A DNA stretch of 64,000 nt from a virus (IMGVR_UViG_3300013426_000018:109970-173969); one strand, 5' to 3'. Numbered from the stretch's first letter, positions 7,911 through 31,429 are shown. Translations and numbers: made by a program. The notes: generated by a model not told the origin, from the letters alone.

Positions 7911-10900
7911 ATGGCATTTGATTTATTAAATATTTAGCCCAATGTTGTTTCACGAGATCTCTCCGGATATATTACACTTTTATATGGCCCTCCTAAAATT
8001 GGTAAAACTACTTTTGGTAGTAAGATGCCTAAACCTCTTCTTTTGGCTGCAGAACGTGGATATTCGGCTATACCTGGTATTATGGCTGTTGACGTAACTT
8101 CTTGGGGTGAATAATATTGCCCTCTTTTTTGGAAACAAAAAAGTAATAAATAGAGTAAAAAACTGGAACCCTGAGATGGGAATCAGAGCGGAAGTCTTGA
8201 TTTAAAAGTCAAGACACGCACAACGCATAGAATAAATAAACTTTAAAAGTATTAGGAGGTTCAGTAAGATGCCTAAACTAAATTATCAAATGAAGAATTA
8301 AATAATATTTTAATAGATTATAATAATGGAATGTCTATGAGCGGTATTACTAAGAAATATCATCATGATAAAAATACTTTAAAAAAATATTTTATAGAAC
8401 ACAATATAAATATACATATTCGTAATAAATCTGAATCATTATCTTGTTCTCAAGAAAAGAAGAAATCTGATCTATTAAAGCGGTCTTATATGGTTAATGA
8501 TAATTATTTTTCTTCTCAAAATAATAAAATGGCTTATTTTTTAGGATTTATAATGGCAGATGGAAATGTCGCCAAAAATAGTAATAGAATACAAATTTGT
8601 TTAGCTGAAAAAGATTCTGAATTTTTAGAGCTATTTTATAAAGAAATTGGCGGCACCCCTGTTGCTCATTATTTTGCTAGAAAAGGTACTCAACCAATTT
8701 GTCGATGGGAATGCCTTAGCAGTAAAATTAAAAAAGATTTAAGTATTTATGGAATAATTCCTCATAAAACGGGATTTGCTAAAATTCCTAATACACTAAA
8801 AAAAGAATTTTATTCAGATTTTATACGAGGTTATTTTGATGGGGACGGTAGTATTTGGATTGAGGAAAATGGCGCCGCAGGTTTTGGTATCACAAGTCAT
8901 AATCCAGAAATATTACAACAAATTATTGATTATTTTGAAGAAAGAGATATTCCACCTGTTAAAATTAATATAGATAATAGAAGTAATATAAATTATAGTT
9001 TTAAATATAGAAAACAAGCTATTAAAAAGATTTATAAAATTTTATATTATGATAAAGAAATTTTTTATTTAAAACGAAAATTTGATAAATTTAATGAAAT
9101 CCTTTTAAAGAAATAAAATTCCACGAGACTCTACACCTAAAAAAATGGTGAAAAGATATGCTGAACTTATACAAAAAAGAAGTATAAGAAATAAGGATAA
9201 AAAGCCTTATGATAACACATTGGATATGAAGCAAATTATGCGTGAACTTAAAAAACCAGAAGTAAAAGAAATGTATAAAAGTATTATTATTGATACAGCA
9301 GATATACTTAGTGATTACTGTCAGAAATATATCTGTAATCAATTAGGTATTGAAAATATTGGAGACGGTGGCTGGACCATCAATGGCTGGGCAAAATATA
9401 AGAAAGAATTTGAAGATGTTTTTCGCACTCTTTCTCAGCTTGGGTAAATAAAATATAGAGGAGATTAGAAATGGACTTATTTCAGTTAGAAAGAATTACT
9501 TCTAATCGTATCAATTGGAAACCAGGACAAAAAGAAAAAATAGTAAAGCTTTATTCACAAGGAACTTCAATTAATCAATTAGGAAAAATGTTTAATGGAT
9601 TACATTATAATACAATTAAAAAAATTTTAATAGAATATAATATACCATTAAGAACTCGAGTGCAAAGTCATTATACAGACCATAGAAAAGAAGACATATT
9701 TAAAAAAATAAACAGCGAAGAAAAAGCTTATTGGTTAGGATTTTTAGCTGCTGATGGCTGTGTAGCTGGTAATTATATTAAAATTGGACTACAGGAAAAA
9801 GATGTGACTCACTTAGAAAAATTCAAACATTTTCTTCAAGCTGATTCTATTAAAATTTTAACTTTTACTAAACAAAATAAATATGAAATAGGAACTTATT
9901 GTTCTTTTTCTATTGGTTGCAAAGAAATGGCAAATGATTTAAAGGCTTTAGGTGTAGTAGAAAATAAATCATTAATTTTAAAGCCTCCTATCGGTTTAAT
10001 CCCAGAAAAATTTTATTTAGATTGGATTAGGGGTTATTTTGATGGAGATGGAGGTCTTTCATATTCTGAAAAAGATAATCGATGGCAAAGTTATGCTAAC
10101 TCTACCAAAGAAGTCTTGGAATGGATTGTTCAAATGCTAGAATTGAATACTAAGCCTTTTAATCAACAACATTATGGAAAAAAAGATAATGTTTGGAGAA
10201 TTCATTTTAATGGAAGAATTAATGTTTATAAAGCTTGGAATAAAATGTACCATAATGATACTGCTACTATTTTTTTAGATCGTAAACATGATAAATACTT
10301 ACAGCTTTGCTCAAGCTTTAAATAAAATGCGGTTAACTACTAGATGGTAGGTGTGACTTTAAGTTGCTAACGATGAAAATCTCTTAGAAGAGAAAACATC
10401 GTGCCAAGTCTGTTTTGTGAAAGACAGAAAGGTGTAACGACTAGAATATACGGTCTTTATAAAAATAAAGATTATGAAATTCGTAATTTATAAGCGAAAT
10501 TCTTATAGATGAAATGCCGCACCCTTTATAATAAAATATAAAGGTGAAGAGATAGTCTAAACTATATAGTGATATATAGAATAATTGATGCTATTGTATT
10601 TATCAGCCATGATAAGGAAAAAACTATTAAGCCTCAGAACGGTGCTGAATATCAGCAGATTGGTTCTTCAATGCAATCTTCAGCTCTTGCTATTCTTGAA
10701 AATATGAGCGATATTATTGCTTATGCCCACACTAAAGTTGATTCCGATGGCAACTCTGATAGAGTTTTAACTCTTCGTTCTCTTGATAATAGTGTACGTT
10801 GTGGGGGCCGTTTTAAATATATTAAGCCGGAAATTCCTTTTAGTTATGAAGCTCTTACTCAGGCTTTAAATGATGCTATTGACAAGGAAGCCGCCGAAAC

Positions 10901-11156
10901 TAATAATAAATTTGTTACCGATGAACGTATTGAAACTGCCACCCTTAAAACTTATGACTTTGATGCTCTTGCCGCAGAGTTCCAGGAGTTAGTTGGAAAG
11001 ATTATGACTAAGAATCAGTCTAACGCTCCTAAGATTAGTGCTATTGTAAGTAAATATCTTGGTAAGGGTAAGAAAGTTTCTGATGCTACTCCCGAGCAAG
11101 CAGAATTTATTTATCTTATCAATACTGAGCTTAAAGAAGATCTTTTAGATAAGTAA
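7911..11156 (+). CDS. Sak4-like AAA ATPase/ssDNA-annealing protein, spliced; exons 7911-8108, 9223-9445, 10588-11156 (329 aa)
   Basis: YGPPKIGKTT Walker A; splicing restores TSWG|DMKQ and QLG(Y)AIVFISH; IIIDTAD Walker B. Confidence 0.85.
8109..9222 (+). mobile_element. group I intron 1 (Sak4-like gene) with LAGLIDADG ORF
   Basis: 5' exon GGGGU pairs with GCCCU; P7 GCAUA/UAUGC; terminal G; removal restores frame. Confidence 0.88.
8331..9116 (+). CDS. LAGLIDADG homing endonuclease (intron 1)
   Basis: AYFLGFIMADG and FIRGYFDGDG; true start uncertain because the RBS-linked ATG at 8269 is out of frame. Confidence 0.88.
   Translation: MSMSGITKKYHHDKNTLKKYFIEHNINIHIRNKSESLSCSQEKKKSDLLKRSYMVNDNYFSSQNNKMAYFLGFIMADGNVAKNSNRIQICLAEKDSEFLELFYKEIGGTPVAHYFARKGTQPICRWECLSSKIKKDLSIYGIIPHKTGFAKIPNTLKKEFYSDFIRGYFDGDGSIWIEENGAAGFGITSHNPEILQQIIDYFEERDIPPVKINIDNRSNINYSFKYRKQAIKKIYKILYYDKEIFYLKRKFDKFNEILLKK
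9446..10587 (+). mobile_element. group I intron 2 (Sak4-like gene), LAGLIDADG ORF in P1 loop
   Basis: Exon CUUGGGU pairs with GCUCAAG at 10309-10315; core GCUAACG...CGUGC, P7 GACUA/UAGUC. Confidence 0.88.
9471..10325 (+). CDS. LAGLIDADG homing endonuclease (intron 2)
   Basis: GAGGAG RBS; AYWLGFLAADG and WIRGYFDGDG. Confidence 0.92.
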   Translation: MDLFQLERITSNRINWKPGQKEKIVKLYSQGTSINQLGKMFNGLHYNTIKKILIEYNIPLRTRVQSHYTDHRKEDIFKKINSEEKAYWLGFLAADGCVAGNYIKIGLQEKDVTHLEKFKHFLQADSIKILTFTKQNKYEIGTYCSFSIGCKEMANDLKALGVVENKSLILKPPIGLIPEKFYLDWIRGYFDGDGGLSYSEKDNRWQSYANSTKEVLEWIVQMLELNTKPFNQQHYGKKDNVWRIHFNGRINVYKAWNKMYHNDTATIFLDRKHDKYLQLCSSFK

Positions 11157-11163
11157 GATATAC

Positions 11164-11200
11164 AACCCCAAGATGAAATATTCTTGGGGTTGATTTTTTT
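11164..11200 (+). terminator. intrinsic terminator
   Basis: AACCCCAAGA / TCTTGGGGTT hairpin followed by T run. Confidence 0.75.
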
Positions 11201-11218
11201 AAAATTTTATGGTATAAT
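11190..11218 (+). promoter_or_regulatory. sigmaA-type promoter with extended -10
   Basis: TTGATT-N17-(TGG)TATAAT. Confidence 0.8.
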
Positions 11219-11252
11219 ATAAAAAAGAATACTTTTAAGAAAGGAGCTTAAT

Positions 11253-11777
11253 GTGGCACATTATGTAATTTGCCCAATATGTAATAAAAGATTTGATCGT
11301 GATAAAGTTGAATTTATTAAAGAAGGTCGAAGATATTTACATGTTGAATGTGCTCAAACCGCAGAAGAACGATTAAGTAAAGAAGAAAGAGATAAGATTG
11401 CTCTTAATCAATATATAACGCAGCTTTTTGGTACTGAATATGTTAATCCAAAAGTTCAAGCACAGATTAAAGATTACGTTACAAATAAAGGATTCACTTA
11501 TAATGGAATTTTAATGTCTTTAAAGTATTTCTATGAAATAAAGCATGGAGACATTGAAAAGGCTCATGGGCGAATCAGTATTGTTGAATATATTTATTAG
11601 GATGCTAAAAATTATTATTATGATATTTGGCAAGCTCAACAAGTAAATAAAGAAAAACAAATAGATTTATATATTCCCGCAAATAATGTAAAAGAGATAA
11701 CAATTAAAGCTCCTGTTAAGAAGCCTTTTTTAAAAAGAATTTTTTCTTTTTTAGATGAAGAAAAGGAGGATAATTAA
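11253..11777 (+). CDS. Zn-finger hypothetical protein upstream of helicase (1 TAG=Gln)
   Basis: CPIC...HVEC; reads through TAG to TAA overlapping the helicase ATG. Confidence 0.8.
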
Positions 11778-14700
11778 TGCCTTCAAAGTATAATGATCCA
11801 GCTGCAGTTGTGTAGGTAATTGGTTGTGTTTACAATAATCCCTCTCTATTGGATATTGAAGATAAATATACAATTACAGAAGATGATTTCCAAGATAAAT
11901 TTCATCAAATTGTTTTTGGTTCTATATTTAAGCTTCATGAATTAGGAGCTTAGGAGATTACTTTAAAAAATATCGCTGATTTCCTAGCAGATAGGCCTAA
12001 AAGTGAAGCGATATATAAACAAAATAAAGGCGATGAATGGTTAGCTAAAATTGCGAAAAATGCTACGCCACTTACTTTTGATTATTACTATGGACGATTG
12101 AAAAAGTTTTCTTTATTACGGGCATATGATAATTTTGGGGTAGATGTCAGTGATGTTTATGACACAGATAATATTCTTGACATAAAAAAGAAGCAATTAC
12201 AAGAAGAGTTCCTTGATAATTCATCACTTGAAAAAATTGCGGATATGATTGATAGTAAACTAGAATCTATTCGTATTAAATATGTTACCGGAGAGAATGG
12301 CGTTTGCCATTAGGCAGGAGAAGGTATTAAAGAACTTCTTGAAAGCTTAAAAAAATCACCTGATGCCGGTGTTCCACTTTATGGTCCTCTTATTAACACA
12401 GTAACAAGAGGAGCTCGGCTTGGAAAGCTATATTTGCGCAGCGCAATGACAGGTGTTGGTAATTTATTTGCCGTCTTTAAAAGGAATTTTAAAGATGATT
12501 ACAGAGGAAAAAATCTGGAAGCCTAAGTCTTATTAGATAAGGTAATCAGAGGTGAAGGCTATATTAAATATAGCCAGCCGCAACGCATAGGGAGTGAAAA
12601 GATATAATCTCCCCACGAGGCCTCTGCTCTTAGCACATAATGGTGAAGATGAAAAGATATGCTGAGCTTATAGGAAACTATAAGAACTATTGGATAAAAA
12701 GCCAATAGGATAACAAAACTGAAAACACGCTCCATGGTCGCCGACTTTTGCTTTATAGGAACCGACTGGATATATGATGAAACTTTTGGATGGATAAGAA
12801 CTACTTTGGCCCAACCATGTTTATTTATTGCTACAGAATAGAATTTAGGCGAAGTCTAGACTATGATGTTAGCTTTTCTTTCTAACGTAAATGAAGAGCA
12901 TATTAGAAGTGGTCTTTATGTAGATGATGAATGGGAAAGAGTAATAAGAGCCGCAGAAATCATCGAACAGAGTCCTCTTTATATCGAAGAGATTCCTGAT
13001 TTCTCTCTACAAGATATCGAAAATATCATAAAGAAGAACATTCGGGAAAAGGACATATCGTATGTGTTCAAAGTAAAAAAATAGGACTGTGTAATATTTT
13101 ACTGATTAATTATCAGGGTTTAGTTTTTTTAACTAAGCTAACGGGGAAACCTTAACAAGTAAAGTTGAAGGTAATCCCGTGGGAAAATTTTTGGACAAAT
13201 ATAATCAAATAGTATTCGATGATATTTATATTTTTTATATAAAAAGGAATGGAGTTGAATACTATTATGGCTATTGTATATAGTTATACTAACTTAATAA
13301 ATGGAAAAAAGTACATTGGACAAACTGTTAATCCAGAACAACGAAAATGTACTCATAAAAGTTCATATCAAAATGAAAAAGATAAGGAATATGATTCTTT
13401 ATTTCATCGAGCGTTAAGAAAATATGGTTGGGATAATTTTGAATATGAAATTCTTGCAGAAAACGATAATTTAGAACTTATTAATGAATTAGAAATCTTT
13501 TATATTGATTTTTATAATACAAAAACGCCAAACGGATATAATATCTTAGATGGTGGAAAAAATGCTAAAAAACCTATGAAAGAATCTACTAAAGAGAAGC
13601 TAATGTGGTCCCATGGAAAAATGACTCAAGAAGAAGTTATTTATCTTCGTATGGCATACGCTAATAAAGAAAGTCCAAAAGCTATCTATGATAAATATTT
13701 TAAAGAACGGTTAACTTATTCAAGTTTCTTAAATATTTGGGATGGCCATCGATACGCTAAAGTTATGCCAGAAGTTATTCAAAAAGGGCGTAGAAAAAAA
13801 TTGACAGATGATCAAGTTCGAGAAATAAAAATAGCTTTATCATAGGGAGAAAAACAAACTAGTATAGCGAAAAGATATAATGTTGATAAAAGTATAATAA
13901 GTTTAATATATCGTAATAAAAGTTATAAAAATATTGTCTAAAAATTGCCCGTATCGACTATCCTAGAATCGTAGGAGTAAGATTATTATTAATACATAAT
14001 TTGAAATGGTATCCTATAACTTATAAAAGTTATAGTAAGAGATAGTCAGTGCTATTAGGAATAATAGACAATCATGTTACGATTACATTTTTACGAGCAT
14101 GAAGATATTAGAAGAGATCACACGAAGATCCGGTGGAGTAAAATTGAGAGAAGATAATGCTCTTTTTATGTTATCAAATAAATTAAAAGATATCTGTAAC
14201 AAATATGGGGTTTTTATTATGACTGCTACACAGCTCAATGGAGACGCGAAGGAAGCTAAAATCCCCGACCAGAATGTCCTTAGAGGTGCCAAATCGATAG
14301 CAGATGTCCTCCAGTGGATATCCAATGGAGATTACGTCGTCCTTAATAGAAATATTAAGGATAATAAAATCGTGAATTGCTGGGAACTCCTGAAAAGGAC
14401 AATCAGCATCTTAAATAATTTTTAATTAAAAAGTTCAACGACTATCCAGACATGGAGTAAATTTTTTATTGAAGTGCGATTTATCTAAAGTATATAACTA
14501 TGATAAAGATATAGTCTATTCCTTGTAGTAATATAAGGTAAAAAAGAAAATTGATTATGGCTCAATCCTTATGAATGTTACAGATGAAGATTTAGTTTCT
14601 TTAAATGAAATTTTAGCAACAGGAGCGTTTGCGACTCCTAACGTAAAATTATCAATTTATAAAAATCGTGGTGGACGTTATAAAAGTTTGTATCTCTGGT

Positions 14701-14819
14701 GTGCTGCTGATTTAGGCACCTGCCGGATAAAGCCTATGTTTGCTACTGCTTATAATTATGAATTAATCCCAATGGATGATATAAAAATTAATGTGGAAGA
14801 ACCTCCTTCCGCTTTTTAA
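11777..14819 (+). CDS. dnaB: DnaB-like replicative helicase, spliced; exons 11777-12460, 12722-13068, 14077-14305, 14547-14819 (510 aa)
   Basis: Splicing restores Walker A SAMTGVG|KT, YVF(Y)DY Walker B and RGAKSIAD|KID; also ATQLN and KNRGG. Confidence 0.9.
12461..12721 (+). mobile_element. group I intron 3 (helicase Walker A), no ORF
   Basis: Splits GVG|KT; AAUCAGAG P4/P5 region; P7 GCAUA/UAUGC; terminal G. Confidence 0.9.
13069..14076 (+). mobile_element. group I intron 4 (helicase) with GIY-YIG ORF
   Basis: GCUAACGGGGAA...AAUCCCGUG core, P7 GACUA/UAGUC; 5' splice site uncertain by about 3 nt. Confidence 0.85.
13249..13941 (+). CDS. GIY-YIG homing endonuclease with C-terminal HTH (intron 4; 1 TAG=Gln)
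   Basis: IVYSY...YIGQT...R, NGYN; read-through adds an HTH; start may be 13267. Confidence 0.88.
14306..14546 (+). mobile_element. group I intron 5 (helicase), no ORF
   Basis: AAUUGCUGGGAA...AAUCAGCA P4/P5; CAACGACUA...AAGAUAUAGUC P7; splits IAD|KID. Confidence 0.9.
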
Positions 14820-14835
14820 ATAAAGGAGAATTATA

Positions 14836-15057
14836 ATGGCAAGAGTAAAAGATTTTGGAAGTAAAAAGGATACCCAGATTAAGGCCCCTGAAGTAAATGC
14901 GGGACTTGTAGAATATAAAATGTCTCGAGCTATGGCTGAAGATATTGTTAAAACCGCAAAGGGTAATAAAAGTGACCCACAAACAGTTTTATGTAATTTT
15001 GTAAATAATTTTATGGGCCTAAAAGGTTATTGTGTAAAGGTTCTTGTCGATTTGTAA
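14836..15057 (+). CDS. hypothetical protein
   Basis: AAGGAG RBS, 73 aa. Confidence 0.75.
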   Translation: MARVKDFGSKKDTQIKAPEVNAGLVEYKMSRAMAEDIVKTAKGNKSDPQTVLCNFVNNFMGLKGYCVKVLVDL

Positions 15058-15076
15058 AATAAAAAGGAGAATACTG

Positions 15077-16177
15077 ATGCTTAGCTATGATAAAGATTAT
15101 GTGAAAGAACAATTAACAATCGAGGATGTTTTTTAGCTTCTTGATGAATTTGGGGCAGAGCCACAGTATTCTCCTTTTGGCATTTTAAGCTCAACAATTT
15201 GTCATAACCCTGTAGGATGTGGATCAAAAAAATTGTATTATTATTCTAATAGTCAGTTATTTCAATGTTATTCCAATTGCCAAAGTATTGATATATTTCA
15301 ATTAGTTATTAACGTAGCAGAAATACAATGGGATAAAAAATATGATTTAAATGATGCTATTAGATGGGTAGCTAATCACTTTGGAATTTCAGGAGCAATC
15401 ATTGAGGAAGATGATTTAAAAACTCTTGAAGATTGGAAAATTTTAGAAGAATATGAGCGAGTTGAAGAAGTGCGACCATCTTCTAAAGAAGTTGTTTTAC
15501 AAGAGTATGATTCAAGTATTTTAAATAATTTTGATTATAATATAAAAATAGCTCCTTGGCTCAATGAGGGTATTAATGCAGAAAGCCTTCAAAAAGCACA
15601 GATTGGATATTATCCAGGAGGAGATCAAATAACTATTCCACATTTTGATGTTAATGGAAGATTTATAGGATTGCGTGGACGCTCACTTTGCAAAGAAGAA
15701 TGTGAACTTTATGGTAAATATAGACCTCTTAAAGTAAATCAAATTCTTTATAACCATCCTCTTGGAATGAATCTTTACGGATTAAATTGGAATAAGAAAA
15801 CTATTGCCGCACTTAAAAAAGCTATTATATTAGAATCTGAGAAATCAGTACTTATGTTAGGTTCTGCTCTTGGATGGGAAAATAACTGTTCAGTAGCTTG
15901 TTGCGGTAGCAACATTTCTCTTTATCAAGTAGAACAATTGCTTAAGTTAGGTATCGAAGAAATGATAATAGCTTTTGATAGGCAATTTCAAACTATTGGG
16001 GACGATGAATTTCAGAAGCTGAAAAATAATTTATTAAAGCTAAAAAAACGGTATAAGAATGATGTAAATATTTCTTTTATCTTTGATAAGAATATGATTA
16101 CTGATTATAAAGCTAGTCCAATAGATGAAGGAATCGATAAGTTCATGAAACTATTTAAAGAAAGGATAATAATATGA
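15077..16177 (+). CDS. DNA primase (1 TAG=Gln, at codon 20)
   Basis: CH..C..C Zn-binding domain, IPH...G..GR, ESEKS and AFD TOPRIM motifs. Confidence 0.88.
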
Positions 16178-16461: not shown

Positions 16462-16464
16462 TAT

Positions 16465-19445
16465 ATGGAATATGAATTAATAAATAAAACAGCAAAAGAT
16501 TCTAATGTTTTAAATTAGATTTTATTAAATCGAGGATTTAAAACAGTTTCTGAAATTTAGCATTATCTAAATACAACTAATGATGATATTCTAGACCCTT
16601 TGCTTTTGGACAATATGCGGGAAGGGGCTTAGATGTTAATACGACATGTATCAAACAACGATAAGACACTACTCTGGTTCGACTGTGATTAACTGAAAAT
16701 GGTCTCAGTCATAAAATAAAATCTTGTAAATTGCGGGAAGTTCCTTAATGCTTTAATAACCAAACTAATGCAGAAATGTATTAGTGGCGAAGGTAATGAC
16801 TAAGGTATGGTAAAATCATTAAAGTTGGATAATCCGCAGCGAAATCTCAATAATTTGAGAAACGTTCAACGACTATAATCAGGAGGTATAATTATTAATG
16901 TATAGTCTAAACCCTTTATTTAGTTCAAGAAAAGCAAATGCTCCTTTTTCTTAGGAGCAGTTAGACCAAATTAAAAAATACTTAGAAGATGGTTTTTCTA
17001 AAAAAGATATACAAGAATTAACGGGAATTAGTGCTAAAGCATTAAATAGAAGAATTAAAGAAAACGATTGGTCTTCTTCTCGTAAAAGACATAGTGGATT
17101 AACTTAGAAAGAACTTACTGAAATTAAAGAAAAATATGAAAAAAAAGAAAAAACTCTAGAAGAGTTGTCTAAAGAGTACAATATTTCTTTAAGTAATTTA
17201 GCCGATCGAGTTAGTAATAATAAATGGAAGCGGACCAAGAAAAAAACTCAATATAATTGTAATGAAAATTATTTTGATAATATTAATGATGAGCATAAAG
17301 CTTATTGGCTAGGTTTTTTATTTGCCGATGGTTACATTCTTTCAAAAAGAGAACGAGGATTAAATGAAAGTCAAAGTTTTGGGTTTTCAATTAGCGTTCA
17401 AGATATTGAACTTTTTGAAAAATTTAAACAAGATTTAAGTAGTAATTATCCAGTTAATATTTATGATGTAAAATCAGGCTTTAAAACAGATAAAAGTTAT
17501 GGAAGAATTCTTATTACTTCTCAACACATGGTAAATCGTCTTAAAGAATTAGGTATGACAGAAAACAAAACTTATACTATAAAGATACCTAATATCGCGT
17601 TAGAGCTAATACCTCATTTTATTAGAGGCTATAGTGATGGAGATGGAAGTATCATTATTTCTCGTTTAAAGTCAGGAGAAATTAAATATGAATGGACTGT
17701 AACTTCTACTAAAGAAATGTGCCAATCAATTTTAAATTATATAGAAAAACCTGAACTAAAATTATCTCAACGATGGCCTGAAAGGAATGTAAATAATTGG
17801 ACTTTAAGGATATCTGGGAATAAACAAGTCCCTTTAATTTTGTCCAAAATATACGATAATGCGACGATATTTCTTGAACGAAAATATAAAAAATATGCAG
17901 AAATGCAGGGTAAAGATGCTTGATGGTTACACAAGCGGAGCCGCATTCCTTAACTATTTTCATTATTTATTCCCTACTTTCATAGAAAATAGTGTTAGCT
18001 ATTAGACTAATGAAGGTAAAAAGCATGGGCTAATTTTAGATAATGTGCCCGAAGGAATTAAATTTATTATAATGCCTGACGCAGGTTCAAACAATATAGA
18101 AGAATGCCGAGTTTTAAAAGAACAACGAAATATTGATGTGCTTATTTTAGACCATCATATGTGTGAAACTTAGAATTCTTATGCGTGCGTGATAAATAAC
18201 CAAATGTGCGATTACCCTAATAAAACGCTCTCTGGTGTTGGTATTGTCTATAAATTTTGTTAGTATTTTGATAGTTTATTGGGGACTAATTATGCTAATA
18301 ATATTATTGACTTAGTAGCTTTAGGAATGATTGCGGATGTCATGGATTTGCGTGATTTCGAGACTAAAAGACTCATAGATATGGGGTTAGCGCATATTAC
18401 AAACCCATTCTTTCAAATAATGGTGTTAAAACAAGAGTACTCTTTGAAAGGTGAAATAACTCCAATCGGAGTTGCTTTTTATATAGTGCCTTTTGTAAAT
18501 GCTGTTGCCAGAATAGGAAAACCGCAGGAAAAGCTCTTAATCTTTGAATCTCTTTTGGACTATAAAGGTAATGAAATGATTTCTTCAACCAAAAGAGGAT
18601 GTAAAGGACAAGAAGAAACACGTGCGGAATAGGCTTGTCGCACAGCTTCAAATATAAAAGCCCATTAGCAAAAAGAACGAGATAAAGCAATCAAAATTAT
18701 AGAAGAACTTATTGAAGAGCAAGGTCTATTGAAAAATAAGATTCTTGCAGTAAGATTAGATAAAGAACATTCTATTAATCGAGCACTTACTGGTTTATGT
18801 GCAAACGTTCTTATGGGGAAATATAAACGTCCAGTTTTACTTTTAAGCCAAACAGAAGATGAACATGGTTGTATCTGCTGGGAAGGTTCTGGTAGAAACG
18901 TGGGGCATTCTAAATTCGATAATTTTAGAGAGTTCTTGCGAGAAAGCGGATATGTAATGTATGCAGAGGGCCACAATAGCGCTTTTGGTACGGGCATCTG
19001 TGATGACCTTTTCGATGCCTTCATTGCATACTCTAACGAGGCTCTTAAAGATTATGATTTTTCTGCTTGTTATCAAGTTGATTTTATTTTTAATCAAGAA
19101 ACTCTTACTGGAAGAAATATTCTTGATATTGCTAATCTAAATCACCTTTGGGGAACTGGCATAGAAGAGCCTTATATTGCGATTGAAAATATTAAAGTGA
19201 CTGACAATATAATTCTTATGTCACCTGATAAAAATCCTACAATGAAAATCCTTCTTCCTAATGGAATTACAGCTATTAAATTTAAATCTTCTGCTGAAGA
19301 AGTCGAAAAGTTAAAAGGGAGTAATGGCTTAACTACTTACATTAATATAATTGGACGTTGTGCTTCTAATATTTGGCAAGGTAATGTTACTCCTTAGATA
19401 TTAATAGAAGATTACGAGATTTGTAAGAAAGCATATGACTTTTGA
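16465..19445 (+). CDS. recJ: RecJ-like DHH ssDNA exonuclease, spliced; exons 16465-16689, 17919-19445 (583 aa)
   Basis: Splicing restores DCD|LDGYTS; ILDHH, LSGVG, GMIADVM, GSGR, GH..AFG motifs; 9 TAG=Gln. Confidence 0.92.
16690..17918 (+). mobile_element. group I intron 6 (recJ) with LAGLIDADG ORF
   Basis: Exon GACUGUGAU pairs with GUCUCAGUC; AAUUGCGGGAA...AAUCCGCAG; P7 GACUA/UAGUC. Confidence 0.9.
16898..17923 (+). CDS. LAGLIDADG homing endonuclease with N-terminal HTHs (intron 6; 2 TAG=Gln)
   Basis: AGGAGG at 16881; in frame with track ORF 17165; AYWLGFLFADG and FIRGYSDGDG. Confidence 0.85.
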
Positions 19446-19449
19446 TAGA

Positions 19450-19487
19450 GAAATTAGTTGCTCGGGTCGAACTGGGTAGCTAATTTC
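19450..19487 (+). terminator. stem-loop after recJ (probable terminator)
   Basis: GAAATTAGTTGCTCGG / CTGGGTAGCTAATTTC with G-U pairs. Confidence 0.6.
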
Positions 19488-20786: not shown

Positions 20787-20791
20787 ATTAA

Positions 20792-23700
20792 TTGACACTT
20801 GTTTACCCTGGAAGTTTACATAATCATACTGAATACTCAAATTTACGCTTAAGAGATTCTATTAACCGTATTGATGATTTAATTAATTATGCTATTGAGT
20901 TAGGACAAGAGGTAATTGCCATTACAGAACATGAAACAATAGCAAATGCCTTAAAGATAGAAAAATATTATGAGAAAATTAAAAAAGAACATCCAAATTT
21001 TAAAGTAATTCTTGGCAATGAGATTTATTTGTGCCGTAATGGATTGACTAATGAAAATTTTCAAAAAGGAATAGATAAATATTATCATTTTATTCTCTTA
21101 GCGAAAGATAGTATTGGTCATCAGCAAATTAGAGAATTATCTACTAGAGCTTGGAATCGTTCTTGGATGACTGGTAAAATGCGGCGAGTACCTACTTATT
21201 ATAGTGATATAATAGAAATAATTGGGGCTAATCCTGGCCATGTCATAGGAAGTAGTGCCTGTTTAGGCGGTTTTCTTGATTCTAAAATTCTTGAATGGTA
21301 TAACAATGAACAATCAAAAGAATTATATCAAAAAATTAAAGAATGGTGTTTAAGCATACAAAATATTTTTGGTATTAATAATTTTTATCTTGAAATGCAA
21401 CCTTCCGCAAATAAAGACCAACTTATTGCCAATGAAATTATTTATCAATTATCAGAAGAATTAAACATTCCTTTTATTATTACGACAGATAGTCATTATT
21501 GTAAAAAAGAAGACGCAGCTATTCATAAAGCTTTTCTTAATTCTCAAGAGGGTGATAGAGAAGTTGATGCTTTTTACGCTACTACCTATTTAATGGGAAC
21601 AGAAGAGCTTGAAGGATATATGAATAATTTTAACAAAGAAGTTTTTTCTAAAGCTTATGAAAATATCTTAAATATTAAAAATTCTTGTCAAGACTATTCT
21701 TTAAAGAAAACATTAAAAATTCCTTCTCTTTATTGGAAAACCCCAAAAACTCAAATAATTGAACCTATTTGGTTTGAAAGAATTCCTTATTTTAAACAAT
21801 TTGAAGAATCTACTTTTAATGGAGATAAAATTTTAATTCGTTTAATTGTTGACAAACTCTTAAGTGATACTAGATTACAAAATAAAGAAACTTATGATGA
21901 AATTAATGATAATTTAAGAATTACATGGATTTCTTCTGAAGTAAATAAAGCGCATTGGAGTGCTTACTTTTTAAATCTTCAAAATATTATTGATGTGTGC
22001 TGGGAAGCAGGAACTATAGTAGGGCCAGGTCGTGGTTCAGGCGTTGGGTTTTTATTATTATATATTTTAGATATTATTCAAATTAATCCTATGTGGGAAA
22101 CTACTAAAACTTTTTCATGGAGGTCAACCAAATCGGTTTAAAGGCTTCCTCTGCTTGGCGACAAGCTTAAAATAAATTATATGAACACATAATAACGTGG
22201 TGTAAAATTATAAAATAATTTTGCTAACGGTGGACAGTTTTAAATAAACTAAATACCGTGCTTTTTACATACACTTGGAGAGCCAATCGTATGTAAAAGT
22301 GTATCGACTATGGGTATAACCCAGTAGATTAGATTTTATTACTAATCGAAGCGTATAAACTCTCCATAATATATTAATAAAGGATATGATATTATGGGAT
22401 GTATTTATAAAATTACAAATACTTTAAATAATAAAATTTATATTGGTTAGACGGTAAAAACTATTGAAAAAAGATTTCAATAGCATAAAAACAATAGCAA
22501 TAAACCCTATTTTTCTCAAATAGTATTATATAAAGCCTTTAATAAATACGGAATTGAAAATTTTATTTGTGAACAAGTAGAAGAAGTAGATAATGAAAAA
22601 TTAGATGAAAGAGAAAAATATTGGATTGAATATTATGATAGTTTTTTTAATGGCTATAATTCTACTTTAGGAGGACGAGCTACTCAATTATATAATTGGG
22701 ACATTGATGATATTATTGAAAAATATCAATAGTTAAAATCTGCCCGTAAAGTAGCAAAAGAAATTGGATGTGACCATTCTACTATAGATAGATTATTAAA
22801 TGAAAACGGTATAATACGTTTTACCCCAGCTTAGTAGTAGTCCAAGGCGTTAAGTATAATTGATAAACAAAATTAGATTCATAATTTCGATACTACTACA
22901 GATGCTGCAAAATGGTTAATAGAAAATAAATTTACCAAAATAACCAATCCTGTTATTGTAAGACAAGAAATTTGTGTTAGATTACGAAAAAATAAAAAGT
23001 ATTTGGGATTAAAAATGTATTATTAGGAGAGTAAGAGATAGTCAGCACTTTCAGTGATGGAAGATTAATGCGTTTTAAATCCTAATCGAGTTTCTGTCCT
23101 TGATATTGATACAGATATTGAAGGAGGGCGTCGCCCACAGGTTCTTCAAGCCCTTCGAGATTATTATGGAGAGGATAGAGTTGCTAATGTTGTTACTTTT
23201 GGAACTGAAAAAAGTAAAAGCGCAATACAAACTGCCGCAAGAGGTTTGGGCGTTGATAATGATATTGCTTTATATATTTCATCACTTATTCCAGCTGATC
23301 GAGGTATTACTAGAACTTTAAAGCAATGTTATTATGGTGATGAAGAAAATGATTTCAAACCTATTCCTGATTTTATTAAAGAAATGAATAATTATCCTGA
23401 ACTTTGGAAAGTCGCTCAAAAAGTAGAAGGATTAACGGCAAAAACTAGTCCTTCAAAGATTTAAAATATTTTTTCCTAATATATTATTAGGGGTTATATA
23501 AAATTATAGCTAACGGGGAAGCCTTAACAAGTAAAGTTGAAGGTAATCCCGTGGGATTAATTTCTTATGGTTAAAAGAGTTTAACAGCATTTTTTATTTT
23601 TTTATTATTAAGAAAGGAGGATAAGAAAAATGAATTATATTTATGGTTATTTGAATAAAATTTCTAATAAATGGTATGTTGGACAAACAACTTTACCTAT

Positions 23701-26700
23701 TAAAGAACGTCATAGGTTACATCTTTCTGGAGCCAAAAATAAAAATAGTTCTGATTACAATTGTTTGTTTCATAAAAAAATACGAGAATATGGAATAGAA
23801 AATTTTGAACTTTTTATTTTAGAAAAAGTTCCTAATAAAGAAGATTTAGATAAAAAAGAGCAATTCTGGATAAAACAAAAAAATAGTTTCGTTAAATATG
23901 GACAAGGATATAATATTACTACTGGTGGATAGAAAAGAAAAGTTAATGAAGATTATTGGGATATAAGATGTTGCTTATCAAAAGAAGAAGCTTTGAACAT
24001 AATAAGACTTTTAAAAGAAACAGATATTCCATAGACTGAAATAGCGAAACAGTATAATATTAATATTGGTATTGTCAATCAAATAAATAGCGGTAAAAAA
24101 TATCGTTTATTGGAAGAAAATCAATATCCAATAAGAGAAAAAAAAATTCTCCCTTTATCTACAGAAACAGTGGAAGTAATTATTGCTTTATTGCAGTAGG
24201 GTTATGGTAATGCAGAAATTGCTAAGATGTTCAATGGAGAAGTAAAACCAGGAACTATTTCAGCTATTAATATTGGAGATAAGCATAAAAGCCCAAAATA
24301 TTCTTATCCTATTCGTAAAAAGACTAATGAAAAAATAAAAAAACAAGAACAAGCTGAAAAAATTAAATATCTTTTAGAAGAAGGAAAATTAAATAATAAA
24401 CAAATTTCTGAAATTATAGGTTGTGATCCTTCTATTGTTTCTAGAATAAATTATGGGAAAACTTATAAAGATGAAAATAGAAAATATCCTATAAGAAATT
24501 AACCTGTATCGACTATAGTGGGTCAATCCGCTAGTAAGAATACTATTAATAAGTATTTTGAAACATTTATTACCTTTAAGGTTAAGATATAGTCAATACT
24601 AGTAGAAATACTAGATTTTATGTAGTATGTCGTGTAGGAGAACACGCGGGTGGTATTGTTTTTGTAGATGAACCTTTTACCAACTCTACAGCCCTTATGA
24701 AAGTTCCTAATGGAGATACAGTTACTCAATTTGATCTCCATGATGATGAAGATGTGTCCCTTATTAAGATAGATATGTTATCTGTAGAAGGTTATGATAA
24801 AATTCATAACTGTCTTGATTTATTGTGTGATGCTGGATATATTAAAAAAGAAGCTACATTACGAGAAACTTATGAAAAAGTATTGGGTATTTATAATCTT
24901 GAAAGAGAAAATCCTAAAATGTGGGAAATGGTTTGGAATCATAAAATTCAATCATTATTCCAAATGGAACAGCAAAGTGGAACTCAAGGTATTGCTTTAA
25001 CCCACCCAGAATCCGTAGATGATCTTGCTGTTTTGAATTCAGTTATTCGATTAATGGCGCAAGAAAAAAATGCTGAACAGCCATTAAATAAATATGCTAG
25101 ATTTAAAAATAATATTTCTTTATGGTATAAAGAAATGGATATGTATGGTCTTACTAAAGAAGAACAAAAACTTCTTGAGCCAATAGTTAAACAGTCTTAT
25201 GGTATTTGTGAATCTCAAGAGAAATTTATGCAATTAGTTCAAATGCCTGAGTGCGGAGGTTTTGACCTAACTTGGGCAGATAAATTGCGTAAATCAATAG
25301 CTAAATTTTTGGCGTTTTAAAAAGAAATTTTTAAAATTATTATTGGGCAAAATCGGTGAAGGCTAAATAAAGAATTTTTATAATTAACGACAGATAGAAT
25401 ATGAAAGGTCGTTGAATATGAAAAAAATAGTAAGTGAAGAAGAAAAAAATATATGGAAACAAAGATACCTAAACGGTGAAACAGCAAGAAATATTGCTAA
25501 AGATTTCCCTTAGTATAACGAAACTACAATAAGTAGACATATTAAAAAGATGGGAATATCCAGAGGAAAAGGCAAAATTGCTGAATATAAAGATTTAGAA
25601 GAAATTATTATTTAGGAATATCAAGACGATAAAATGGCAACTTGTTCATCATTATCCTTGAAATATAAGATTAATGATAGAACAATTTCTAAATGGTTAA
25701 AAAATCATAATATTCCAATAAAGCAGAATAGTGGTTATATTTCTAAAGCAGATTAGAATTATTTTAAAATAATAGATACTCCAAGCAAAGCTTATCTATT
25801 AGGTTTTATTACAGCAGATGGCGCTGTAACTGGAAAAGTAAAAGAAAAACCAACTTCTTGTAGTATTGAAGTTTAGGAAAAAAATAAAAATATAATACTA
25901 TTTGCTCAAAAAGAAATTAATCCTTTTGCTACTATTACTAATTGCCATTATAAAGGGAAAAATAATTTAAGAATAAGTTTTAATGGAGTTTAGCTATGTT
26001 CTTATTTAGAACGATATGGAATAGTTTAGAATAAAAGTAAAACTATAAAAGAAGTTCCCTATGATTTAATCCCTAAAGAATTATTGTGTTTTTATTTTAG
26101 AGGATTAATTGATGGAGATGGTTGTATAGGAAAAAGAGGACAAGTTTCTATTTATTCGGGAAGTAAAGATTTTTTAATTTCAGTTTAGACCATTTTATGC
26201 AATGAACTTGGCTTAAAAAAATTAAAAATTTATTAGGGAACAGCATATTTTCTTACTTGGACAAGTAAAGAAGATAGAGAAAAACTTTTTAATTTTTTAT
26301 ATAAAGATAATTTAAATATGACTTACTATTATGAAAGAAAATACAATCGTTTATATAATTCTTTATATGCTAATACCGAGGTAACTTCTTAGATTACGCA
26401 AGGCTAAGAAGCACCGTAGAGCGTAGATAGTGAATAAATATAATCTATCCAAGAGTGTCCGACATCTTAATCTTATAAAGAAAGATGAAAATGTACGCCG
26501 AACTTATAAGAAATTATAAGAATTATTGGATAAAAAGCCAATAAGATAACATATTGAAAAAAAACCCCAAAGGTTTCCTTGAATTACAAAAAGAATTTTT
26601 TAAAAACGCAAAAGAAAAACATTTAAGTGAACATTTTTGTAATTATGTATGGAATGTGCTTGTATCAACAAGTAAAGGCTATGGATTTAATGCTTCACAT

Positions 26701-28065
26701 ACATTAGCCTATTCTCTCGTTGGACTTCAAGAAATGAATCTTGGCTTTAAGTATCCTATTATCTTTTGGAATACTGCGTGTCTTATTACTGATAGTGGTG
26801 GAGCAGATGAAGATATTGGAGATAAAAATAATAACTATGATAAAATTGCTACAGCAATTGGTAAAATGCAACAAGCAGGAGTAAGTATAGCTCTTCCTAA
26901 TATTAATAAATCTGAATATACATTTACCCCAAAAGTAAATGAAAATCAAATTTATTTTGGCCTACGAGGTATGCTTAATATTGGTGATGAACTAATCCAA
27001 ACTATTATTGCTAATCGTCCTTATGAGTCTCCTAAAGACTTTGTAAATAGAGTGTCGCCCAAAAAACAATCTATGATTTCTCTCATTAAAGGTGGCGCTT
27101 TCGATGAAATGGCTGACCGCAAATTTGTTATGGCTTGGTATTTATGGTCTGTTTGTGATAAAAAAACTCGTTTGACTCTCCAAAATATGCCAGGATTAAT
27201 TAAATATAATCTCTTACCTCTTGAAATCCCTGAGCAAAAAATGGCAAAAAGAGTTTATGAATTTAATCGTTATCTTAAAGCTATTAACAAAGGTAATAAA
27301 TCTGATTATTTTGAATTAGACAATAGAGCTATTAATTTCTTAATTGAAATTGGAGCAGAAAATTTAATTCATCAAAATACTTTATTAAATCAAAAGATTT
27401 GGGATAAACAAATTTATCAGAAATATATGGACATTTTTCGTTCTTGGATTAATGAACATAAAGATGAAATTCTTCAAAAAATGAATGATTTAATCTTTAT
27501 GGAAGAGTGGAATAAATATGCGGGTAATGGCAATATCTCAGCTTGGGAAATGGAAGTTCTTTGTTTTTATTATCATAACCATGAATTAAAAGATGCCAAT
27601 AAGACTAAATATGGCTTTACTAATTTCTTTAATTTACCTGAAAATCCAATAGTAGAAAAAAGTTGGAAAAAAGGCGATAAAGAAATTAAAATCTTTAAAC
27701 TTTCAAGGCTCTGTGGTACTTGTATTGCGAAAAATAAAACTAAAGGTATTGTTACAATTCTTACTACTGATGGAGTTGTAAATGTTAAATTCCGAAAAGA
27801 AGTATTTGCTCTTTTTGATAAACAAATATCTCAAAAGAATACAGATGGAACAAAAAAGATTATTGAAAAGTCTTGGTTTAATCGTGGAAATATGATTGCA
27901 GTTACTGGTATACGATCAGGTGATAATTTTATTATGAAAAAATATGCAGCGACTCCTGGGGCGTCTCTCTATAAGATTAAAGAAGTTTGCCCAAATGGAG
28001 AACTTATTTTAACAGATCAGCGCGCGCAGGGAGAACTTGAAGAGGAGGAAGAGGGAACTATTTAA
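20792..28065 (+). CDS. dnaE: DNA polymerase III alpha subunit, spliced; exons 20792-22124, 23073-23432, 24623-25302, 26557-28065 (1293 aa)
   Basis: PHP HNHTEYS, GPGRGS; splicing restores WR(F)LNPNR..DIDTD, EG(L)VCRVGEHAGG and RKSIA|KK; also KIDML and YGFNASH. Confidence 0.95.
22125..23072 (+). mobile_element. group I intron 7 (dnaE) with GIY-YIG ORF
   Basis: Exon GGAGGU pairs with GCUUCC; P7 GACUA/UAGUC; terminal G. Confidence 0.9.
22394..23068 (+). CDS. GIY-YIG homing endonuclease (intron 7; 9 TAG=Gln, absent from ORF track)
   Basis: MGCIYKIT...YIG(TAG)T...RF..H, NGYN, HTH. Confidence 0.85.
23433..24622 (+). mobile_element. group I intron 8 (dnaE) with GIY-YIG ORF
   Basis: Exon GAAGGAU pairs with GUCCUUC; P4-P5 nearly identical to intron 4; P7 GACUA/UAGUC. 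Confidence 0.9.
23630..24502 (+). CDS. GIY-YIG homing endonuclease with repeated HTH modules (intron 8; 3 TAG=Gln)
   Basis: YIY...YVGQT...ERH, GYN; track ORFs 23630 and 24227 share a frame. Confidence 0.88.
25303..26556 (+). mobile_element. group I intron 9 (dnaE) with LAGLIDADG ORF
   Basis: AAAAUCGGUGAAGGC...AAUACCGAG; P7 GCGUA/UACGC; 3' end similar to introns 1 and 3. Confidence 0.9.
25418..26407 (+). CDS. LAGLIDADG homing endonuclease (intron 9; 9 TAG=Gln, absent from ORF track)
   Basis: AYLLGFITADG and FRGLIDGDG. Confidence 0.85.
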
Positions 28066-28077
28066 GTCCTTAAAGCA

Positions 28078-28839: not shown

Positions 28840-28921
28840 CTATTATGTAAAATCCCATATTAATTATGGGATTTTATTCCCTACTCAAAATTAATTTATA
28901 TATATGAGGAGGACTTTAACT

Positions 28922-31429
28922 TTGGTTAATGTTAAAATTTAGAAACGAGATGGACGAATAGTTCCATTTGATGAAAATAAAATAGTTGATGCAGTATTGG
29001 CAGCTTTTAAAGAAGTAGATGGAGAAATTACTGAATATGCTGAAATTAAAGCTGGAAATATTGCCGATTATGTTTATGACTATTGTGAAAATCTTCCAGA
29101 TGGAAAAATACTAAATATTGAAGAAATTCAAGATTTAGTAGAACATGGTTTAATGAGTTTAAAGAAAAAGGATGTCGCAAAAGCTTATATTCTCTATAGA
29201 GATAAGCGCAATGCCGCAAGAGGTAATTTAACAGACAAGACTTTCCTTGATTTTCTAACTGGGCAAAGTGATTATTGGAATACCGAAAATTCTAATAAAG
29301 ACGCAAAAATTGTAACTACACAACGAGATTATATCGCTGGCATAGCAAGCACTGATATAGCAAGACGTTTTCTTCTCCCAAAAGATGTGTGTAATGCTCA
29401 CGATTTAGGAATTATTCATTAGCATGATGTTGATTATATGGCTCAAAATGCTTTAACGAATTGTTGTCTAATTAATTTACATGATATGCTTCTAAATGGA
29501 ACAGCAATTAGTGGAGTTAAAATCGACCCACAACGTCGTATTACAACTGCTTCAACAGTAGCTACTCAAATTATAACGGCAGTTGCAAGTAGCTAGTATG
29601 GCGGCTGTACAATTACTTTAACCCATTTAGCCCCTTTCGTAAGAATGAGTTACCAAGAAAACTATCAAAAAGGATTAAAGTATTTCAATGATGATAAGGA
29701 AAAAGCTGAATTCTTTGCCGAAAAAGAAACTAAAATTAATATAAAAGATGCAGTTCAAACTTTTAATTATCAAATTAATAGTATGAGCACAACAAATGGG
29801 CAAGCACCTTTCTTATCTGTTTGTATGTATATTAGTGAAGATCCCGAATATGAAAAAGAAACTGCAATGTTAATTCAAGAATTTCTTGAACAAAGAATTC
29901 AAGGAATGAAAAATAGTAAAGGTGTTTATATTACCATTGCATTCCCAAAATTATTATATGTTCTTGATGAAAATAATATTTATCCAGGCGGCGAATATTG
30001 GTATTTAACACAATTAGCAGCAAAATGTACAGCTAAACATATGGTTCCTGATTATATTTCTGCTAAGAAAATGCGTGAATATAAAGTGTCACCTGTAAAT
30101 CAGACTCATGATGTATATGGTTGTATGGGTAAGTGTAATACTATAGCTCATATAAAATTTTTTGAACTTTTCCAAAAGGTGTTTTATAATTATTATAAAG
30201 CTAACGGTTAGGTCTAAATTGGTTAGATGAGACCGTGTAAAAATTACTTTAGAACTTTATAAAATAACAGTTCTAAATTAATTTTATGTATCGACTATTC
30301 CTGATGAATGTAAGGAAGTAAGACAAGGATTGGATCTTGTTTGAAGCGAAAAACAACTCTACAAATTGTAGAATGAAGATATAGTCAGTACCATTAGTGA
30401 TAATGGAATAATATGTGTAGAAGTTTTTTAACTCCCGATCGATGTACAAAAAACTATGCAAAAGCTTTAGATTATATTCCAGGAGTATCAAAATACTATG
30501 GAAGATTTAACATGGGCGTAACAACTATAAATCTCCCTGATGTCGCTTTTTCAAGCGAAGGAGATCTTGATAAATTTTGGGATTTAATGGAAGAAAGAAC
30601 TGAACTCTGCCATAAAGGTTTATTAGCAAGAATTAAACGTCTTGAAAATGTAACTTCTGATGTAGCTCCTATACTTTGGCAAGACGGAGCTTTTGCTCGA
30701 TTAGACAAAGGCGAAAAACTACATGATTTAATCCATCACGGATATTCTACTGCTTCTCTTGGATACGCTGGTCTTTATGAATGCGTAAAATATATGACTG
30801 GGCAATCATTAAGCCAAGAGGAAGGCAAAGAGTTTGGTCTAAAAGTTATGCAATTTTTAAACGATAAATGCGCTCAATGGAAAAGTGCTGAAGATATAGA
30901 TTATTCAGTTTATGGCTCTCCCATTGAAAGCACTACTTATAAATTTGCCAAATGCTTAAAGAAACGTTTTGGTGATGATATTTTTATTAAACTTGATGGT
31001 CATGATAGAAGTTACATAACTAATAGTTACCATTTGCCAGTATTTGAAAAAATTGATATTTTTTCAAAATTAAAAATTGAGAGTGAATTCCAGAGACTTT
31101 CTCCAGGTGGAGCAATCAGTTACGGAGAGACAGCTAATCTGCAAAATAATATTGATGCAGTATTAACTGTTATTCAATTTATTTATGATAATATCATGTA
31201 CGCAGAATTAAATACAAAAAGTGATTATTGTCAAAAATGTGGTTACGATGGAGAAATCTTAATAGATGATAATATGAACTGGTATTGTCCTAATTGTGGT
31301 AATAGAGATCAAAGAACCATGAATGTAGCTCGACGCACTTGTGGATATGTGGGTAGTCATTTTTGGAATTATGGTCGCACACAAGAGATAAAAGAACGCT
31401 ATGTCCATCTTGGTGGAGATGAAACTTAA
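28922..31429 (+). CDS. nrdD: anaerobic (class III) ribonucleotide reductase, spliced; exons 28922-30130, 30416-31429 (740 aa)
   Basis: ATP cone KRDG, H(Q)HD, NCC, SS(Q)YGG, MG|CRSFL, RRTCGY glycyl-radical loop. Confidence 0.95.
30131..30415 (+). mobile_element. group I intron 10 (nrdD), no ORF
   Basis: Exon AUGGGU pairs with GCUCAU; P7 GACUA/UAGUC; inserted immediately before the catalytic Cys codon. Confidence 0.92.

Follow-up and report, generated by a model that had tools for sequence, protein, structure and literature searches.

Ten predicted mobile group I introns interrupt five replication and nucleotide-metabolism genes in a TAG-recoded phage genome

In the Bastillevirinae, SPO1 and Twort, all phages of Firmicutes, up to three group I introns interrupt genes for DNA polymerase, TerL and ribonucleotide reductase; experiments have demonstrated splicing, and the survey counted 45 introns in 52 genomes (PMC11878797). 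Zeta and Delta crAss-like gut phages combine stop-codon recoding with very dense group I introns in core genes, and Zeta genomes, from phages with Bacteroidetes hosts, contain up to 14 introns and 3 inteins each (Yutin et al. 2021, PMC7886860). Jug jumbo phages carry an average of 18.5 group I introns per genome, their nrdD, terL and DNA polymerase genes are fragmented, and metatranscriptome reads support splicing of 37 of 76 introns (Sci Adv 2026, PMC12880540). Here we describe ten predicted group I introns in five replication genes of the virus IMGVR_UViG_3300013426_000018. All are located between positions 7911 and 31429 of a 64,000-nucleotide stretch (109970-173969, hereafter the window), and coordinates refer to the window unless the genome is named. 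The window is AT-rich (about 31% guanine plus cytosine). It covers the final 64 kb of this gut-type phage's 173,969-bp record, which is complete (100%) according to CheckV. The nearest cultured relatives are Enterocloster phages, e.g. PMBT24 and the CB457/CB473 series, whose replication module is syntenic and intron-free.

An initial annotation of the window had placed ten introns in the genes for a Sak4-like protein (two), DnaB (three), RecJ (one), DnaE (three) and NrdD (one). We derived the junctions independently by mapping PMBT24 proteins with tblastn and reading each junction in three frames; counts, sizes and ends agreed with those first proposed. For every intron the splice sites chosen were the sole pair that combined an exon-final U, an intron-final G and a gapless alignment to homologues. 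The ten introns sum to 8,672 of the 23,519 nucleotides in the interval, matching the earlier estimate of about 8.7 of 23.5 kb. Judged from sequence and comparative evidence, it is very likely that all ten are mobile group I introns of the phage IA type with extra helices of the P7.1/P7.2 type, and that they fall into three sequence families.

TAG is a sense codon in this phage. Read as Gln, it opens a frame of 2,616 codons with 43 TAGs plus many other frames, conserved motifs of window genes contain in-frame TAGs, and in homologue alignments of the genes studied here Gln stands opposite TAG 235 times, far above any other residue. All gene models therefore use TAG as Gln. The breaks are not mere in-frame TAG codons: the TAGs stand apart from them, and translating TAG as Gln leaves all ten in place. 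The five genes are as follows:

7911-11156, plus strand: Sak4-like (AAA_24) single-stranded DNA-annealing ATPase gene; exons 7911-8108, 9223-9445 and 10588-11156; 329 amino acids, 1 TAG.
11777-14819, plus strand: DnaB-like helicase gene; exons 11777-12460, 12722-13068, 14077-14305 and 14547-14819; 510 amino acids, 5 TAGs.
16465-19445, plus strand: RecJ-like single-stranded DNA exonuclease gene; exons 16465-16689 and 17919-19445; 583 amino acids, 9 TAGs.
20792-28065, plus strand: DnaE (DNA polymerase III alpha) gene; exons 20792-22124, 23073-23432, 24623-25302 and 26557-28065; 1293 amino acids, 0 TAGs.
28904-31429, plus strand: NrdD (anaerobic ribonucleotide reductase) gene; exons 28904-30130 and 30416-31429; 746 amino acids, 3 TAGs.

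Two in-frame TAGs were also seen at conserved Gln positions of a RecD/Dda-like helicase gene (19713-20786), in the contexts GDPF[TAG]IPV and WAD[TAG]ILCATN. The predicted introns, some with an open reading frame (ORF), are listed below:

Sak4-i1, 8109-9222, plus strand: 1114 nucleotides, family B.
Sak4-i2, 9446-10587, plus strand: 1142 nucleotides, family A1; ORF in the P1 loop, core after the ORF.
DnaB-i1, 12461-12721, plus strand: 261 nucleotides, family B; no ORF.
DnaB-i2, 13069-14076, plus strand: 1008 nucleotides, family A1.
DnaB-i3, 14306-14546, plus strand: 241 nucleotides, canonical group I; no ORF.
RecJ-i1, 16690-17918, plus strand: 1229 nucleotides, canonical group I; core first, ORF running through the 3' splice site.
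DnaE-i1, 22125-23072, plus strand: 948 nucleotides, family A1; ORF in the P8 loop.
DnaE-i2, 23433-24622, plus strand: 1190 nucleotides, family A1; ORF in the P6 loop.
DnaE-i3, 25303-26556, plus strand: 1254 nucleotides, family B.
NrdD-i1, 30131-30415, plus strand: 285 nucleotides, family A1; no ORF.

Alignment to uninterrupted homologues had been named beforehand as the comparison that could refute these introns. The five conceptually spliced frames contained neither TAA nor TGA, each aligned to the uninterrupted PMBT24 protein as one high-scoring segment pair (HSP), the Sak4-like product included, and all ten junctions were gapless against uninterrupted relatives. Junctions were likewise gapless in the close relatives L143, L154, L163 and L167. 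In one example, with a slash marking the junction in protein sequences, QINPMWETTKTFSWR/FLNPNRVSVLDIDTD pairs residue by residue with QINPMWESTRTFSWR/FLNPDRVSVLDIDTD. The exons also matched consecutive, non-overlapping positions of family profiles: 26-91, 93-160 and 165-328 of phrog_124 for the Sak4-like gene (Pfam AAA_24 also matched), 1-73 and 75-560 of phrog_2484 for RecJ (with Pfam DHH and RecJ_OB), 26-84, 94-205 and 210-259 of DNA_pol3_alpha (PF07733) for DnaE exons 1-3, and 1-257 and 264-562 of NRDD (PF13597) for NrdD (with ATP-cone and Gly_radical). Further Pfam matches were PHP, the finger domain and HHH_6 in DnaE, and DnaB and DnaB_C in DnaB, which gave single gapless HSPs to the uninterrupted DnaB of L143, L154 and others. 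A PDB search with Sak4 exon 3 gave no match.

The relatives compared comprised 80 viral contigs with relatives of DnaE exon 2 and 23 with relatives of RecJ. In the closest of them (L143-L146) DnaE was about 73%, DnaB 65% and RecJ 51-53% identical, all three genes were uninterrupted, and DnaE residues 1-1290 aligned as one HSP. RecJ was uninterrupted, with a gapless junction, in about 86 relatives. Enterocloster phage DnaE was about 41% identical over exon 1 and 36% over the whole spliced protein, and the intronless NrdD of PMBT24 was 67% identical in one HSP. A megablast match to Enterocloster nrdD was rejected as an intron match, as it corresponds to NrdD exon 2.

Most junctions had been reported to split functional motifs, and the homologue alignments placed them where they had been described. 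DnaB-i1 splits Walker A at GVG/KT and DnaB-i2 splits Walker B at YVF/YDY, and the DnaB-i3 junction, SIAD/KIDYG, agrees with L143 and L154. RecJ-i1 splits DHH motif I at DCD/LDG. The DnaE junctions read WR/FLNPNRVSVLDIDTD, EG/LVCRVGEHAGG and, for DnaE-i3, LRKSIA/KK; the second of these stands just before HAGG. NrdD-i1 is located at CMG/CRS, residue 409 of this NrdD and Gly289/Cys290 in T4 numbering; in T4 NrdD, Cys290 is the active-site cysteine. The Sak4-i2 junction, G/YAIVFISHD, agrees with PMBT24 and L163. Other 3' splice sites were rejected for Sak4-i2 (G10569, G10571 and G10579) and for DnaB-i3 (G14537), because only G10587 and G14546, respectively, align gaplessly to homologues.

The three features first ascribed to each intron, namely a U at the 5' splice site, a terminal G and a P7 pair, were present in all ten: T precedes the intron in 10/10, omega G ends it in 10/10, and a paired P7 is GACUA/UAGUC in seven (here the slash separates the strands) and GCAUA/UAUGC or GCGUA/UACGC in three. 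On the plus strand of the whole window, seven of nine CGACTA[TG] sites and six of eight A[GT]ATAGTC sites fall within predicted introns. The Rfam group I model RF00028 matched four introns: DnaB-i3 at 70 bits, RecJ-i1 at 44.5-47.8 bits (E = 1.9e-9), Sak4-i2 at 36.8 bits (E = 5.9e-9, genome search) and NrdD-i1 at 24.2 bits (E = 2.9e-4, searched alone). Rfam applied to the whole window at the gathering threshold gave 0 matches, and an E-value run on 25 kb gave 1. Most introns were missed in the whole-window run because speed filters hide them, and short-locus and per-genome searches recovered more. Covariance models had been suggested as a check, and they bore the annotation out: RF00028 matches four introns, the model R1 described below matches three more, and the last three (DnaB-i2, DnaE-i1 and DnaE-i2) have P4, P7 and P9 in common with the Rfam-matched Sak4-i2 and NrdD-i1.

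The canonical family consists of RecJ-i1 and DnaB-i3, which have textbook P, Q, R and S elements that can be read directly in RecJ-i1. Family A1 consists of Sak4-i2, DnaB-i2, DnaE-i1, DnaE-i2 and NrdD-i1. Common to all five are a segment beginning GCUAACGG (J3/4 and P4), the R element GUAUCGACUAU, the S element AAGAGAUAGUC and P9, together with two hairpins after P7 (P7.1 and P7.2) linked by AGUAAG; such P7.1/P7.2 hairpins are a hallmark of group I subgroup IA. RNAalifold on the A1 copies in the window gave P7, P9, and P4 with compensatory changes, the P4 variants being ACGGGG/CCCGU, ACGGUG/CACCGU and ACGAUG/CAUCGU. In DnaE-i1 the R and S elements are at 22305 and 23036, and P4 shows covariation. 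A module, CUUAnCAAGUAAAGUUGAAG, was seen to recur in different helices, in P5 of A1 introns (13156-13175 and 23530-23549) and in P8 of family-B members of L024, L038, L042 and L044; it looks like a portable tertiary-contact motif.

P1 was sought as a pairing of the splice-site U with a G of the guide sequence. Seven introns had a P1 of at least 4 bp with the U.G pair close to the 5' splice site. The lengths were:

NrdD-i1, 10 bp.
DnaE-i2, 7 bp (GAAGGAU/GUCCUUC).
DnaE-i1, 6 bp.
RecJ-i1, 6 bp.
Sak4-i1, 5 bp (GGGGU/GCCCU).
DnaB-i1, 4 bp.

In Sak4-i2 a P1 of 9 bp, AGCUUGGGU/GCUCAAGCU, is formed with positions 10309-10317, 863 nucleotides downstream and within the last codons of the ORF. The P1 of DnaE-i3 is short, with either 3 bp beside the site or 5 bp at a more internal position.

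In family B (Sak4-i1, DnaB-i1 and DnaE-i3) P4-P5 is compact, a P7.1 helix is present, the P7 sequence is non-canonical and the 3' domain is invariant (P9.1 loop GGAUAAAAAGCC, then GAUAAC). The helix order, assigned by eye, is P1, P2, P3, J3/4 (A-rich), P4, P5, P4', P6, P7, P7.1, P3', P8, P7', P9 and P9.1. P3 and the guide sequence vary among the three copies in compensating fashion, and the minimum-energy fold of DnaB-i1 shows P2, P5, P6, P7.1, P9 and P9.1. The covariance model R1 was built from five ORF-less family-B members, with P7 excluded. Across 100 sources it gave 133 matches, about 100 of which scored more than 80 bits, and in the window it found exactly the three predicted family-B introns and no others: DnaB-i1 at 218.7 bits, Sak4-i1 at 78.3 bits (5' part) and 59.3 bits (3' part), and DnaE-i3 at 96.7 bits on 26340-26557. 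In the R1 alignment, covariation supports P3, P4, P5, P6, P7, P7.1, P9 and P9.1. Of its cells 95.6% pair, against 64.7% when shuffled and 32-46% when partners are slid, and both sides have changed in 42 of the 45 pairs. P7, which the model did not fit, still pairs in 98.7% of cells. Among the 133 rows it is GCAUA/UAUGC in 59 and GCGUA/UACGC (the form in DnaE-i3) in 35, and the rarer variants GCGCA/UGCGC, GACUA/UAGUC, GCUUA/UAAGC and GAGUA/UACUC occur once each. Family-B P7 crosses P3 as in the group I pseudoknot. This covariation supports a predicted group I topology for family B that includes the P3/P7 pseudoknot.

The family-B 3' motif was present in more than 112 IMG/VR contigs. In L063 the 3' domain is joined to a core that RF00028 recognises (45.3 bits), and the same domain forms the 3' end of endonuclease-bearing, gene-splitting insertions in Bacillus phage PJN02 and C. 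difficile phage phiCD211. In phiCD211 (L013, 2856-3439) the tape-measure gene is in two annotated pieces. Between them a family-B-like 3' domain (3001-3122) immediately precedes an annotated Intron_gpI (3149-3414); the gap may contain two tandem introns, of which only one is annotated. Many IMG/VR contigs, among them L049, L015, L039, L063 and L108, have family-B introns in groups of two to four spanning no more than a few kb, and L049 has two such introns, 145 nucleotides apart, in its Sak4-like gene (3345-3941). Multi-intron phage genes are common in the IMG/VR collection. It is possible, though in our estimate doubtful, that family B is a large phage intron class invisible to the Rfam group I model and missed by the subgroup models as well. 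Were the subgroup models indeed to miss it, phage intron loads would be systematically undercounted and many 'fragmented' phage genes would in fact be intact.

Homing endonuclease ORFs were found in seven of the ten introns, four of the LAGLIDADG and three of the GIY-YIG type, leaving three introns ORF-less:

8331-9116, plus strand: LAGLIDADG ORF in Sak4-i1; 261 amino acids, 0 TAGs; PF14528, E = 2.4e-12.
9471-10325, plus strand: LAGLIDADG ORF in Sak4-i2; 284 amino acids, 0 TAGs; PF14528, E = 2.5e-11.
13249-13941, plus strand: GIY-YIG ORF in DnaB-i2; 230 amino acids, 1 TAG; PF01541, E = 3e-6.
16898-17923, plus strand: LAGLIDADG ORF in RecJ-i1; 341 amino acids, 2 TAGs; LAGLIDADG_3 and LAGLIDADG_1 (both below the Pfam cut-off) and HTH_24.
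22394-23068, plus strand: GIY-YIG ORF in DnaE-i1; 224 amino acids, 9 TAGs; PF01541, E = 1.8e-12.
23630-24502, plus strand: GIY-YIG ORF in DnaE-i2; 290 amino acids, 3 TAGs; PF01541, E = 4.6e-10.
25412-26407, plus strand: LAGLIDADG ORF in DnaE-i3; 331 amino acids, 9 TAGs; PF14528, E = 4.1e-11.

The stop codon of the RecJ-i1 endonuclease ORF is located 5 nucleotides into exon 2. The DnaE exons contain no TAG, whereas the endonuclease ORFs of the three DnaE introns contain 9, 3 and 9, including three consecutive TAGs at 22832-22840.

Nine of the ten sites were occupied in some relatives and empty in most. Occupied sites were those of Sak4-i1 in L049 (an ORF-less homologue) and L175, DnaB-i1 in L201, DnaB-i2 in L149 and L150, DnaE-i1 in L155, L180 and L183, DnaE-i2 in L153 and L177, NrdD-i1 in L177, and RecJ-i1 in L206, where the R and S motifs are laid out alike. 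The DnaE-i3 site was occupied in 0 of 80 relatives. Relatives use further DnaE intron sites near residues 157, 420, 610-619 and 835. Homing elements produce such a patchwork of occupied and empty sites. The statement in the initial annotation that Sak4-like and RecJ genes are not classic phage insertion sites was only partly upheld: a literature search for phage Sak4, RecJ, DnaB or DnaE introns gave nothing specific, but in nature L049 and L175 have an intron at the same Sak4 site and L206 has one at the same RecJ site, compared to about 86 uninterrupted RecJ genes.

As mobile group I introns, the ten would have reached their sites, conserved codons that evolve slowly in five genes of replication and nucleotide metabolism, by endonuclease-mediated homing. 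Each gene would be transcribed through its introns, and each intron RNA would fold and excise itself by two guanosine-initiated transesterifications, with the U.G pair in P1 setting the 5' site and the terminal G the 3' site, so that the ligated mRNA would encode an ordinary full-length protein. In a mixed infection the endonuclease would cut the intron-less allele and repair would copy the intron in. Self-splicing, endonuclease activity and any effects on timing are what we infer from the observed intron positions and ends, collinear products, core RNA architecture, endonuclease genes and site occupancy in relatives.

Several observations weigh against this interpretation. RF00028 gave no match at E <= 10 for six of the ten introns, and only DnaB-i3 exceeded its gathering score of 50. 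P1 is weak in two introns, with 3 bp only in DnaB-i3 and no convincing guide sequence within 120 nucleotides in DnaB-i2. For P3 of family A1, examined by eye in the five members, several AU-rich registers fit because the AT-rich sequence permits them. The ORFs of DnaE-i1 and DnaE-i3, with 9 TAGs each, may be decaying or dependent on a suppressor tRNA, and the genome itself comes from a metagenome assembly. The silence of RF00028, the weak P1 helices and the TAG-laden ORFs would also be expected if some of the introns were dead or were endonuclease insertions that do not splice, the genes being pseudogenes or separately translated fragments like the T-even-type genes split by free-standing mob endonucleases. 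An ATG immediately 5' of NrdD exon 2 would suit separate translation. We nevertheless regard this alternative as very unlikely. No Shine-Dalgarno-like sequence precedes candidate starts at or near the ten downstream exon starts, and several downstream exons, including DnaE exons 2 and 3, are without a start codon. The breaks interrupt Walker A, Walker B, the DHH motif and the active-site loop of NrdD, so that working pieces would be unlikely. All exons are open and conserved, the paired P7 is kept in all ten introns, and in a phage record rated 100% complete the window holds each of the five genes only once. Inteins are excluded: translation continued past each exon runs into TAA or TGA after 0-39 codons, and the endonuclease ORFs either use another frame or begin at a start of their own. 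We also exclude group II introns, since no group II family in Rfam matched at E <= 10 and the ORFs include no reverse transcriptase.

The introns might instead serve the phage, either by gating replisome assembly through ten splicing events that depend on GTP, folding and translation, or by endonucleases that give marker exclusion against superinfecting relatives. Every large replication protein is broken at an essential motif, a GTP-sensing 'molecular switch' has been proposed for the Bastillevirinae (PMC11878797), and the endonucleases differ in TAG load, which could couple their expression to a code switch. Yet the closest relatives have the same genes intron-free, site occupancy is patchy, three introns have lost their ORF, and selection of homing sites alone predicts positions at conserved motifs. 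A functional intron set is thus very unlikely in our estimate, and tolerated genetic parasitism rather than regulation is the most economical reading of the intron load.

Beyond the ten, RF00028 and R1 point to at least eleven further introns, giving at least 21 in the genome, so that the replication-gene introns make up about half of its load. Within the window, one additional signal was found:

63301-63519, minus strand: RF00028 match of 41.5 bits (E = 2.3e-10); the R motif is at 63380 and the S motif at 63317.

We take it as another predicted group I intron, in a late gene on the minus strand at the end of the window. The other signals lie outside the window (genome coordinates on G000:C1):

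30688-30876, 31062-31384, 31392-31615, 31741-31969, 33333-33530, 33617-33728 and 35750-35945, minus strand: cluster of RF00028/R1 matches.
11122-11374, 15665-15818 and 21845-23081, minus strand: three intron signals, comprising RF00028 matches of 72.6 and 40.6 bits and a family-B intron.

The cluster at 30688-35945 lies among ORF fragments resembling the large terminase and the gene upstream of the large terminase. The family-B intron of the last line holds an inserted ORF, and R1 matches it in two parts (83.8 and 70.6 bits).

Because of TAG recoding plus ten introns, a gene caller would see the five replication genes as about 17 fragments; the exon model restores them. The Rfam model finds four of the ten introns and none at the gathering threshold on the whole window; standard pipelines therefore badly undercount introns in such genomes. 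The locus also supplies ten candidate ribozymes that occur together naturally, along with seven candidate site-specific endonucleases whose targets are defined and lie at catalytic motifs.

The self-splicing T4 introns (td, nrdB and nrdD/sunY, with I-TevI, I-TevII and I-TevIII) resemble the predicted introns in being of IA type and located at conserved codons of nucleotide-metabolism genes, and in carrying GIY-YIG-type endonuclease ORFs in peripheral loops; T4 has three introns genome-wide, compared to ten in 23.5 kb here. The annotation of T4 nrdD gives two pieces and places I-TevII within the gene. NrdD-i1 is not at the same site, as the T4 site corresponds to about residue 288 of this NrdD and NrdD-i1 is at residue 409. 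The Bastillevirinae genomes Megatron, Eyuki and Nigalana contain sequences resembling the family-B 3' domain. Unlike in the Bastillevirinae, SPO1 and Twort, the interrupted polymerase here is of the DnaE type, and Sak4-like, DnaB and RecJ genes are also targeted. Compared to the crAss-like phages, the present phage has at least 21 introns, its nearest cultured relatives infect Enterocloster, and no inteins were seen in this region. The Jug phages use the standard code in Bacteroides or Phocaeicola hosts and have mostly small introns (about 206 nucleotides) with mainly HNH endonucleases, whereas this phage is recoded and the endonucleases of the ten introns are LAGLIDADG and GIY-YIG. Since dense intron loads in gut phages have already been published, our finding is a heavy, well-supported example of a known gut-phage habit and not a new mechanism. 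Its more useful by-products are the exon model, a widespread intron family missed by the Rfam model, and new homing targets in the form of Sak4-like, DnaB, RecJ and DnaE genes. Dense intron colonisation, described in the crAss-like and Jug phages with Bacteroidetes hosts, is thereby extended to a recoded phage with nearest cultured relatives that infect Enterocloster.

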